DNA of 64,000 nucleotides from Octopus vulgaris (Eukaryota), in the NCBI GenBank assembly GCA_951406725.2, contig OX597833.1, positions 41,602,001-41,666,000 of the forward strand, read 5' to 3'. The notes beneath the pieces were generated by a model. That model did not search any database and was not told the DNA's origin. It saw only the letters and a program-made list of their open reading frames with translations. A program made the position numbers and the translations under genes. Of the stretch, positions 2,071-26,772 are shown one piece after another; the first letter of the stretch is position 1; each line of letters starts with the position of its first letter.

Positions 2071-2091
2071 TATTTATATTGCTACTTACAG
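2071..2091 (+). promoter_or_regulatory. Candidate 3' splice acceptor in front of the MDN1 exon
   Basis: TATTTATATTGCTACTTACAG at the shift from very AT-rich to mixed composition. A second candidate, CAACTTCCCCAG, ends at 2188, one base before the ATG. Confidence 0.5.
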
Positions 2092-2189
2092 AGGCTTTCA
2101 TGCAGTAGTGTTTGGCCTAGACGGTGAAATACTCCAGAAACTAACAAGACTTGCACCACCTGTTGGCTTGAAACATCAACTTCCCCAGG

Positions 2190-5100
2190 ATGGCTAACCC
2201 ACTAGCAGATCTGGTCCTTCAACTTTGCAAGAGGAATCAGTATTGCTCTTCAAAGTTCCAAGAACTCCAGCATAAAGAAGAATGGACTACATCAAATAAA
2301 CAAGAGGTTCTTGCACTTCTAGCAGAATTATTCCTTCATCCAACATGTACTGAAGATGTAACATATTGTAGCAGTACAATTCTATTAGATTTGGTTGAGA
2401 GAGTAAAAAGCATGGTAGTGAGTAGTGAGAGCAGTCAGACCACTTCATTGCACCAAACATTCTGCATTGCTCTCAGTAAAGCTGTTAGTACATGCCCTTC
2501 ACTTAAGAAATTTTTTATATTATATCTCAAAAACAGTTCACCTTTCTTGTATTCAGAGCAAGATGTTACTGAACCAGCATCCAAAAAAATGAGACTGGAG
2601 TACAGTCAGTTATCATTATCAGACTCCCATCCTTTAGAACTTGTCCAGACAGCTTATCGCTGTGTTGTGATTTTTGGTCGTGAATCTGAATCAGTGATTT
2701 CACCGGAACATTTATTACCATTTTTATCAAATGCTAACAAAGATGTCCAGTGGTTTACTGTGCAGACACTTGCAACACTTTTGCAGATGTCTGCACGCCA
2801 GCGAGATACTCTCATGAAACGTTACTTTCAACGTGAAGAGATGGTCCAACTGATGTTACGCTATAGAAAGCTTCTGCTTTGGCCAGAAACAAATGTCAAT
2901 GACAATAGAGTAAATGACAAACAGCTAAAGACTGCTACTTACCTGGCTGAAAACAAACTCCTTGATTCACATGTTGTTTCTGTCAGTGGCATACTTCTTC
3001 CTAAAATTCTGAGAAAACCTCGAGGTATGGAATCAGAACTTGTATCTGTTCCCACAACAGATAAGAACTTGCAACATCTAGGACATGAAGTTAACCTTGG
3101 TTGTCCAGTTCTACTACAAGGTCCTGTTGGGTGCGGAAAAACTTGCTTAGTTGAATGTCTAGCTCAGATGACAGGTCGTCGGAAAAGTTCCCATCTACTA
3201 AAACTTCAACTTGGAGATCAGACTGACAGCCGAGCCTTGTTGGGCATTTATCAGTGTACTGATGTGCCTGGAGAATTTGTTTGGCAGCCAGGGATCCTAA
3301 CACGAGCTGTATCTGAAGGTTATTGGGTTCTTTTGGAAGACATTGACCATGCTCCTATGGATGTTATTTCTTTATTGTTACCCCTCCTTGAAAACAAAGC
3401 TTTGATGATTCCCAGCCGTGGACAGAAAATAACTGCCTCCCCTGGATTTCAGTTATTTGCTACCTACCGTACTCTTCCTGGCACCGGTTCATATATCAGT
3501 AGTTACAGTAGTGCAATGTCTGCACTATTAGAAAAAAATTGGACAAAGCTCAATTTAGACCCATTATCTAAAGACGAACTTTATGAAATAATTTCCCAGA
3601 AATATCCTGCATTACATTCTATCATTGACCGTCTACTTGAAATTTATTTCTTGTTGTCACGTGGGGAACATGTGGGAATGATGGAAGTGGATGATGACAA
3701 CAAATTCAATAGCAAGTTCTTTTCCCATGACAAGCGATTAATATCAACCAGAGATCTCTTGAACTGGTGCAAAAGAATTGCTTGTTATGATTTAACATCC
3801 TCTGCAATTAGCCAACTTGTTTTTCAAGAAACTCTTGATTGCTTCTGTTTCAGCATCAGTTGCCCGAAACGTCGGTTGCAGCTTGCAGAAGCAATAGGTG
3901 CCAAGTTAAATATCACCAAATCAAAAGCCGAATACTACTGCATGAAATACAAACCAAATGTGCAAATTTCCACTTATGAATTCCTAGTTGGAAGAGTTAT
4001 CCTGCCTAAAATTAAACATTCGACTAAACCCATAGAATCTTCTCACCACCGTCTGTTCTCTTTTACACGGCAGTCATCTGCTCTTTTGGAAAAAGTAGCT
4101 GCCTGTGTCCAAAACAATGATCCTGTTTTGCTTGTTGGTGAGACAGGAACTGGCAAAACTTCAACTATTCAGTACTTAGCTAATCAACTTGGACACAATT
4201 TACAGGTGATCAATATGAATCAACAGAGTGACAGTACTGATCTTCTTGGTGGCTTCAAACCAGTTGACCTCAAATTGGTTGTAAAACCTTTCAAAGATTC
4301 CTTTGAAGAATTATTTTGTAAGACTTTTTCTCGGAAGCAAAATGTTGTATTTTTAACTCACATTGAAAACTGCTATTGCAAAAAGTCTTGGAGAGATATG
4401 TTTACCTTGATGGAACATACCATTAAATCAGCCATAAAGAACCAGACTGAAAATTCTGAGATGTGGATGCTGTGGAAAACTCAAGATAAGAAGTTAAAAC
4501 AGCTACGTCTCCAAGTGCAGAAAACTGAAAGCACTTTAGCATTCACATTCATTGAAGGAACTTTGGTGAAGGCACTAAAGAAAGGAGATTGGATTCTTCT
4601 TGATGAAATCAACCTGGCCACTACAGAAACATTGGAATGTCTAAGTAGCTTACTGGAGAGCAAATCTGGTTCTGTTGTACTTTCTGAACGAGGAGATCTT
4701 GAACCTGTGATCAGGCATTCAAATTTCCGTCTTTTTGCTTGCATGAATCCTGCCACTGATGTTGGTAAAAAAGCACTCACTCCAAGTGTGAGAAACCGTT
4801 TCATGGAATTTTATGTTGATGAGTTGAATGATGTTCAGGATTTGAAAGTGTTGGTGAATGATTATTTATCTGGTTTGTCATTGTCCCCTTCTCAAATAGA
4901 TGGACTGGTCAATTTCTACATGCAAGTTCGTGTTCTAGCTACCAAACAGCTTACTGACGGCACAGGCCATAAACCACATTACAGTTTAAGAACTTTCTGT
5001 CGTGCCCTGATGTGTGCATCATTTAATCCTGGTGGAGTGATAAATCGAACCCTGTATGAAAGTCTTTGTATGAGTTTCCTCACTCAATTAGATCGTTCCT

Positions 5101-26044: not shown

Positions 26045-26520
26045 GGGCGCATGGCTTAGTGGTTAGGGTGTTGCACACACAATTGTGAAATTGTGGTTTC
26101 AATCCCTGGACCGAGTGGTGCATTGTCCTTGAGCAAAACACTTCATTTCATATTACTCTGTGATCTATTTGGCGTTAGGAAGGGCATTTAGCGTTAGGAA
26201 GGGCATCCAGCCATAGAACCATTGCCAGATCAGACTGGGCCTGGTGCAGCCTTCTGGCTTCCCAGATCCCAGTTGAACCGTCCAACTCATGCCAGCATGG
26301 AAAGCGGACGCTAAACAATGATAATGATGATGATCACTTTGACACTTGATGTGTGATACACTATGCATCAGTTCAGGCAATGTTGATTTGTTGGAGGAAG
26401 TGAGCTAATATACAATACAAACATTTGATCTCTATAAGCAGATCATTTGTGTAGGTTATTCAGCAAGAAGTTGCAGAACCTTCTTTCATCAACTACAAAA
26501 GACTACCATCATGTTTGGCA
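26045..26520 (+). mobile_element. tRNA-derived SINE (family 3) with an inserted RTE-tail fragment
   Basis: Head GGCGCATGGCTTAGTGGTTAGGG...GGTTTCAATCCC (A/B boxes); RTE tail at ~26170-26335. Relatives at 29462, 38365 and 56790. Confidence 0.65.
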
Positions 26521-26691
26521 TTTCAAGTTATTTTCTAACGACAGCCTTACGACTTTTCAAATTTCCAGAAGATTTTTTGATGTAATTTTCAAGTAAAGTA
26601 TTTAAGAGTTGGGATTTTTTAGAAAACCAAGAAAAGGTTAATGTTTGGTTGATGTTAGCTGAAACTATAGAACTGTATATTTCTGTTTTAG

Positions 26692-26772
26692 GGAAACAAC
26701 CGTGATAAGTGGCAGCCAAAGAGTTACAAGCTCACTGTACGACATAATGAACTTTTTCAGAAATATTACCAG
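26692..26772 (+). CDS. NSUN2: NSUN2 exon (first visible)
   Basis: tttag|[27 protein letters not shown]|gtaagt; phase 0/0; no Met. Confidence 0.85.

Follow-up and report, generated by a model that had tools for sequence, protein, structure and literature searches.

To our knowledge, there are few loci at which a single pre-mRNA can give rise to either of two essential gene products that are unrelated to each other. The closest precedent for the octopus locus described here is the insect Su(var)3-9/eIF2-gamma pair, in which, according to the available part of PMC1435931, the two products share 79-84 codons in frame and hence a common N-terminus, with a guest exon of more than 1450 bp. In C. elegans, as presented in the portion of PMC3875643 at hand, unc-17/cha-1 and unc-60 each hold a same-strand gene in the first intron, with a common first exon and a choice of product made by splicing and polyadenylation; the shared exon of unc-17/cha-1 is untranslated and its products act in one pathway, and at unc-60 only the start codon is shared, serving both of the related proteins. 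Mammalian retrogenes offer a further parallel, such as Taf9 in Ak6, an intronic retrocopy expressed with upstream host exons (available part of PMC4772013), and Utp14b in intron 1 of Acsl3 (available part of PMC5750009); in the orphan class of retrogenes the parent is lost. The accessible part of PMC4394429 provides general background only.

The locus lies in a 64,000-nucleotide stretch of the Octopus vulgaris genome (2.8 Gb), referred to as the window and corresponding to positions 41602001-41666000 of OX597833.1 (contig C20 of genome G000); coordinates outside it are given as offsets, that is, the C20 position minus 41,602,000. MDN1, encoding midasin, a giant ATPase of 60S ribosome maturation, is located wholly within intron 1 of the tRNA-methylase gene NSUN2 on the same strand, as established by tblastn and by exon chaining, the latter giving an intron of 38,100 nt. 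This nesting, which the initial annotation had proposed, was observed directly once exon 1 had been found 11.4 kb upstream of the window, and we regard it as practically certain. The coordinates of the features are collected in Table 1.

Table 1. Features of the NSUN2/MDN1 locus (window positions; offsets where indicated).
Feature	Position	Strand	Details
In-window part of NSUN2 intron 1	1-26691	+	upstream exon outside the window
NSUN2 exon 1, likely common to MDN1	offsets about -11530 to -11409 (C20:41590470-41590591; L014:1470-1591)	+	tblastn, exon chain, contigs
Acceptor of the MDN1 exon	2071-2091	+	11.3 bits, fourth highest among the 2429 AGs of intron 1; 13,500-nt intron from exon 1
Single, terminal MDN1 exon	2092-18841	+	at least 16.75 kb: 98-nt leader, CDS, 3' UTR of about 290 nt or more; one unbroken X13 contig
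Predicted uORF, last 11 codons and TGA	2092-2127	+	stop codon 2125-2127; spacer of 62 nt to the MDN1 AUG
Two-codon uORF within the first uORF	2100-2108	+	weak start context; in-silico join
MDN1/midasin CDS	2190-18551	+	ATG at 2190; intronless CDS of 5453 aa; no other copy found
Candidate intronic poly(A) signals	18731-18856	+	AATAAA at 18731, ATTAAA at 18851; X13 contig end (18841) between them
Rival NSUN2 ATG exon (doubtful)	25053-25091	+	used by O. sinensis RefSeq model P0002
NSUN2 exon 2	26692-26772	+	81 nt, flanked by phase-0 introns
NSUN2 exons 3-20	28977-63318	+	exon chain; exons 21-22 at offsets 65010-66403, past the window

In the account proposed here, the intronless MDN1 would act as an alternative last exon driven by the NSUN2 promoter. 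Exon 1 would be spliced to one of two acceptors, with one product per pre-mRNA. Joined to 2092, with a 3' end near 18.75-18.87 kb, it would give an MDN1 mRNA of about 16.9 kb; joined to 26692, 38 kb away, it would give the NSUN2 mRNA. On the MDN1 mRNA, the NSUN2 AUG would be read as the start of a 23-codon upstream open reading frame (uORF), and midasin would be made mainly by reinitiation 62 nt downstream of it, the alternative being leaky scanning. MDN1 itself would be a probable retrocopy, placed in a cephalopod ancestor, that replaced its intron-containing parent. Taken as a whole (nested MDN1, shared exon 1, uORF and retrocopy origin), this account is, in our judgement, probably correct. 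The locus would work in the same way as the insect pair (PMC1435931, in part), but its join is out of frame and would create a uORF, and its guest exon measures at least 16.75 kb; it resembles the nematode loci in architecture and differs from each of them in the features given above. Unlike the retrogenes in the available parts of PMC4772013 and PMC5750009, MDN1 would combine host-exon capture with apparent loss of the parent, and this in an essential gene of 5453 aa; a host AUG turned into a uORF is likewise proposed for octopus MDN1 and is not described in those parts of the two papers, the supplementary tables of which may hold cases. In literature coverage that excludes most subscription journals, no paper linking midasin, NSUN2 and nesting was found, and nothing on the locus appeared, by title and beginning of abstract, among papers on MDN1 or NSUN2 in cephalopods or on an intronless octopus midasin; the arrangement is real and apparently undescribed.

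The host gene was assembled as a chain of 22 GT-AG exons whose translation equals P0187, an annotated Octopus vulgaris protein that may not be independent of this genome, at 846/846 residues. The Pfam domains of P0187 (RsmB-F, Pre-PUA_NSUN2 and PUA_NSUN2) are those of the NSUN2 family. Both the sequence and the exon chain agree with the initial annotation that the exon at 26692 starts at a phase-0 acceptor and contains no Met, and the inspection of the sequence upstream of the window that it had recommended located exon 1. A tblastn search with the O. bimaculoides protein placed the coding part of this exon at offsets -11444 to -11409, with an ATG at -11444, 12 codons and a phase-0 donor (AAG/gtaaat); its leader of about 86 nt contains no AUG, and the exon stretch has one match in the whole genome. 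Exon 1 is continuous with exon 2 in three Octopus models (P0004, P0187 and P0188), and the same join occurs in short-contig Logan proteins from more distant cephalopods (P0005, P0203 and P0205). The NSUN2 contigs of distant cephalopods run through this boundary without a break and show no sign of a branch there.

CpG loss is linked to gene-body methylation. The observed/expected CpG ratio (o/e) is 1.01 around exon 1, at offsets of -13 to -6 kb, and falls to 0.22-0.35 from -6 kb to 51 kb; across 18.8-26.7 kb it is 0.26, with no promoter-like island, as the initial annotation had noted by eye for 18.6-26.7 kb. This profile fits a single, presumably unmethylated promoter zone at exon 1, with none between MDN1 and NSUN2 exon 2. 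Farther upstream, CpG-poor blocks (L002-L006, offsets -56000 to -29000 and -20000 to -13000) suggest the bodies of neighbouring genes, perhaps arranged head to head; the three frames tried upstream of exon 1 gave no Pfam match. Sequences at L001:9000-10000, window positions 140-760 and L002:3866-4723, located in intron 1 of NSUN2 or ahead of its first exon, were judged by eye to be decayed reverse-transcriptase-like (LINE) remnants.

The guest frame is free of stops from 2172 to 18551. Its Pfam matches comprise seven stretches of AAA_5 together with AAA_lid_5, AAA_lid_7 and MDN1_4th, forming tandem AAA modules with midasin lids, and its tail passes from a D/E-rich stretch to a C-terminal VWA domain (24.2 bits, cut-off 23.8), so that both the acidic tail and the MIDAS/VWA domain are present. 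The closest database proteins are named midasin, with identities of 99.8% for O. sinensis and 97.5% for O. bimaculoides, and the start is conserved in midasin proteins of distant cephalopods. The leader region (2092-2200) is not unusual in predicted structure (z 0.43). When the genome was searched with two protein probes, one from an AAA module and one from the C-terminal domain, matches occurred at this locus only, a single-copy result that is subject to short exons escaping the probes and to possible incompleteness of the assembly. In the MDN1 contig of run X13, described below, an extra T in the 8-T run at 9046-9053 would shift the frame at codon 2285; the proteins of O. sinensis and O. bimaculoides show no disruption at that position, so it is probably a homopolymer error.

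With a coding sequence without introns and no parental copy found in the genome, MDN1 has two of the properties of an orphan retrogene, and retroposition into NSUN2 intron 1 followed by parent loss is the simplest account of its origin. NSUN2 and MDN1 are on the same contig, as judged by equal-sized contigs, in both of the other Octopus species (O. sinensis and O. bimaculoides, the older accessions of the latter being two apart), and by eye they are on different contigs in 16/16 non-cephalopods, eight of them molluscs (species with both records, with hybrids and genus-only pairs left out). Human MDN1 is a multi-exon gene, and the labelling of midasin records from bivalves and gastropods as isoforms is a hint of spliced parents. 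In a quick tree of 12 proteins based on the first 2300 residues, a 5460-aa midasin from a 474-kb contig (P0066) groups with the octopods, outside them; provided that P0066 is a simple ORF prediction, the intronless state would be older than the octopods. The branch to the cephalopod midasins carries 0.67 changes per column, compared with 0.05-0.14 for other inner branches of molluscs (2190-9089 against P0066/P0067), which suggests rapid evolution at about the time when the gene moved. No cephalopod MDN1 DNA was found in the metagenome contigs scanned, and the protein search matches included no NSUN2 record from Argonauta.

The same architecture might also have arisen through a DNA-level move of an intron-poor gene, or through loss of introns in place. 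An intact retrocopy of 16.4 kb would be very long and no poly(A) remnant was seen (no run of at least eight A in 18552-19600), both in favour of such a route, although neither a remnant nor a target-site duplication would be expected to survive in an old insertion; the literature gave no usable figure for the longest retrogene, and no length record is claimed for MDN1. We nevertheless consider it unlikely, given the absence of introns in 5453 codons, compared with 21 introns in the host NSUN2, the lack of linkage in all eight other molluscs, and the reading of single-exon Su(var)3-9 as retroposition in the available part of PMC1435931.

The sharing of exon 1 was studied in aligned contigs of four runs (X1, X2, X8 and X13), all presumed to be RNA, of which X13 derives from organism B, a close relative (53 differences in 16.8 kb). 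In three of the four runs the exon-1 contig stops precisely at the donor, position 1591 of L014 (1470-1591 in X8, 1494-1591 in X13 and 1478-1591 in X1), and none is listed for X2; the orientation of the X1 contig was read from the placement of minus-strand records on a nearby repeat. The words of the Logan contig graph are taken to be 31 letters long. Intron 1, exon 2 and site 2189 begin with G and site 2092 begins with A, and the stop at 1591 requires a branch other than G, since continuations in G alone would have extended the contig by one base. On the guest side, one of the four runs (X13) has an MDN1 contig. This contig is 16,784 letters long, its alignment starts at 2090, with record position 29, and ends at 18841, and it enters at acceptor 2092 behind 30 letters of foreign sequence, 28 letters being outside the alignment; a join of exon 1 to 2092 predicts an alignment from exactly 2090/29. 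Of the MDN1 words, 98-99% are present in X1, X2 and X8, and the lack of an MDN1 contig for these three runs, probably an effect of filtering, is no evidence either way. Cover is absent from 1700-2089 in all four runs, which is informative for X13 only, and from 18841 to 19300 in X13.

Between -11.6 kb and 2080, 25 donors score as strong, and 12 of them end in AG; half of these 12 (exon 1 and five others) fit the 2090/29 offset and the other half, including the best rival at -9398, are excluded. Among the contigs listed, and over the stretch to -3 kb, exon 1 is the only offset-fitting donor with clean contig ends. The contig ends, from which the junction letters are deduced rather than read directly, make it very probable that exon 1 is common to the NSUN2 and MDN1 mRNAs, and together with the NSUN2 protein models they fit, indirectly, the proposal of one upstream promoter serving both MDN1 (exon 1 to 2092) and NSUN2 (exon 1 to 26692). 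Two contigs begin at the TCATTT of L014 1473-1478, a motif that we take to be initiator-like by consensus, and 32 letters of the X1 exon-1 contig (L014:1446-1478) do not fit and probably belong to its 5' side, as adapter or unknown leader. Contig joints at 16.6-17.4 kb and in L014 were set aside, as they fall in acidic or mobile repeats.

Splice sites were scored with a matrix derived from 20 NSUN2 introns only, under which true donors range from 3.6 to 12.3. Two acceptor-like sites had been noted before MDN1: that at 2092 is strong (11.3 bits) and is the entry point of the contig, and that at 2189 lacks support (-4.1 bits, rank 1069/2429 among the AGs of NSUN2 intron 1) and, differing from the contig entry point, was rejected as the MDN1 entry. 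The acceptor at 26692 scores 4.6 bits (rank 125/2429). As the proximal acceptor is the stronger, NSUN2 needs skipping of 2092 and read-through of the poly(A) signals. The X13 contig stops beside two such signals, a single-run result from contigs, which cannot show a transcript end. The mutually exclusive switch suggested earlier, coupling 60S maturation to m5C methylation of tRNA, stands as exclusivity per molecule only; that the splice choice is regulated, trading midasin against NSUN2, we would rate as unlikely, even with a proximal acceptor far stronger than the distal one (11.3 versus 4.6). MDN1 and NSUN2 are both housekeeping genes, which speaks against such regulation, and contigs can give neither levels nor an expression ratio. 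Regulation finds a parallel in unc-60, switched by splice and poly(A) choice in the available part of PMC3875643, and a counterexample in the insect fusion, which the corresponding part of PMC1435931 terms accidental.

In a different reading, MDN1 is transcribed from a separate promoter, with a separate leader exon, both within the CpG-rich initial 5 kb of NSUN2 intron 1, and the two genes have only their neighbourhood in common; we consider this improbable. The zone with a CpG o/e of 1.01 does span -13 to -6 kb, and within it a CGGAAGT motif, which we assume to be ETS-like, precedes a good donor at offset -9398 (L001:480-610), possibly a minor second promoter or leader exon. However, a leader exon ending at -9398 was rejected, since it predicts 2088/27 instead of the observed 2090/29, and the only contig listed over it (X8, depth 4) is unspliced. 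Five donors besides exon 1 match the contig offset, and the single O. sinensis midasin protein has two RefSeq accessions, which may reflect a second leader; an own promoter nevertheless leaves unexplained the three exon-1 contigs that stop at 1591, and X13 has a single 5' path, with weak leaders conceivable beyond the contigs listed. Least probable is that NSUN2 starts mainly at 25053-25091, with exon 1 serving mainly MDN1 and the genes arranged in tandem rather than as alternatives, for although P0002 opens with this exon and its donor (6.4 bits) is within the range of true donors, its CpG o/e is 0.13, P0002 has 580 aa and lacks both PUA domains, and the basic exon-1 peptide opens six other cephalopod NSUN2 proteins. 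The initial annotation had seen no ATG-bearing, K/R-rich exon with a phase-0 donor in 18.6-26.7 kb; this exon has an ATG and a phase-0 GT but is not K/R-rich, and as an NSUN2 ATG exon between 18552 and 26691 it is offered by one model, is CpG-poor and is contradicted by the six other proteins. The start exon of P0002 probably reflects an error of gene modelling brought about by the shared exon.

With exon 1 taken as shared, its in-silico join to 2092 is out of frame with MDN1, and the NSUN2 AUG, which is in strong context and is the first AUG of the leader, opens a uORF of 23 codons. Five stops interrupt the MDN1 frame between 2092 and 2190 and preclude a fusion protein of NSUN2 and MDN1; an in-frame fusion was rejected on these grounds, the join terminating after 23 codons. 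That a shared exon would code for NSUN2 and yet be out of frame with MDN1 is a prediction that the initial annotation did not foresee. Since the MDN1 AUG is preceded by a uORF, midasin would be made by reinitiation or leaky scanning, and reinitiation is predicted to be the likelier route. In the available part of PMC10275272, reinitiation uORFs have 10-30 codons, and two examples favour spacers of 39-42 and 79-140 nt; the predicted geometry of 23 codons and 62 nt is in keeping with reinitiation of this kind. A more far-reaching version, which we regard as rather doubtful, is that the retrocopy replaced its parent before the octopod/squid split, that the splice and poly(A) choice is regulated, and that the NSUN2-derived uORF adjusts midasin translation according to the initiation state of the cell, which would connect tRNA methylation with ribosome output.

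The octopus locus would add a mollusc case of two unrelated essential genes from one pre-mRNA, with the twist that the AUG of the host NSUN2 becomes a uORF of the guest MDN1. If the account holds, a 16-kb mRNA can undergo retroposition intact and supplant its parent, and the locus may serve as a natural test of how a donor bypasses a stronger acceptor and poly(A) signals to splice 38 kb downstream. Additionally, the arrangement accounts for a probable error in the NSUN2 N-terminus of one Octopus model, and disrupting the first exon of NSUN2 or the promoter of this gene in octopus by knockout would also hit midasin.
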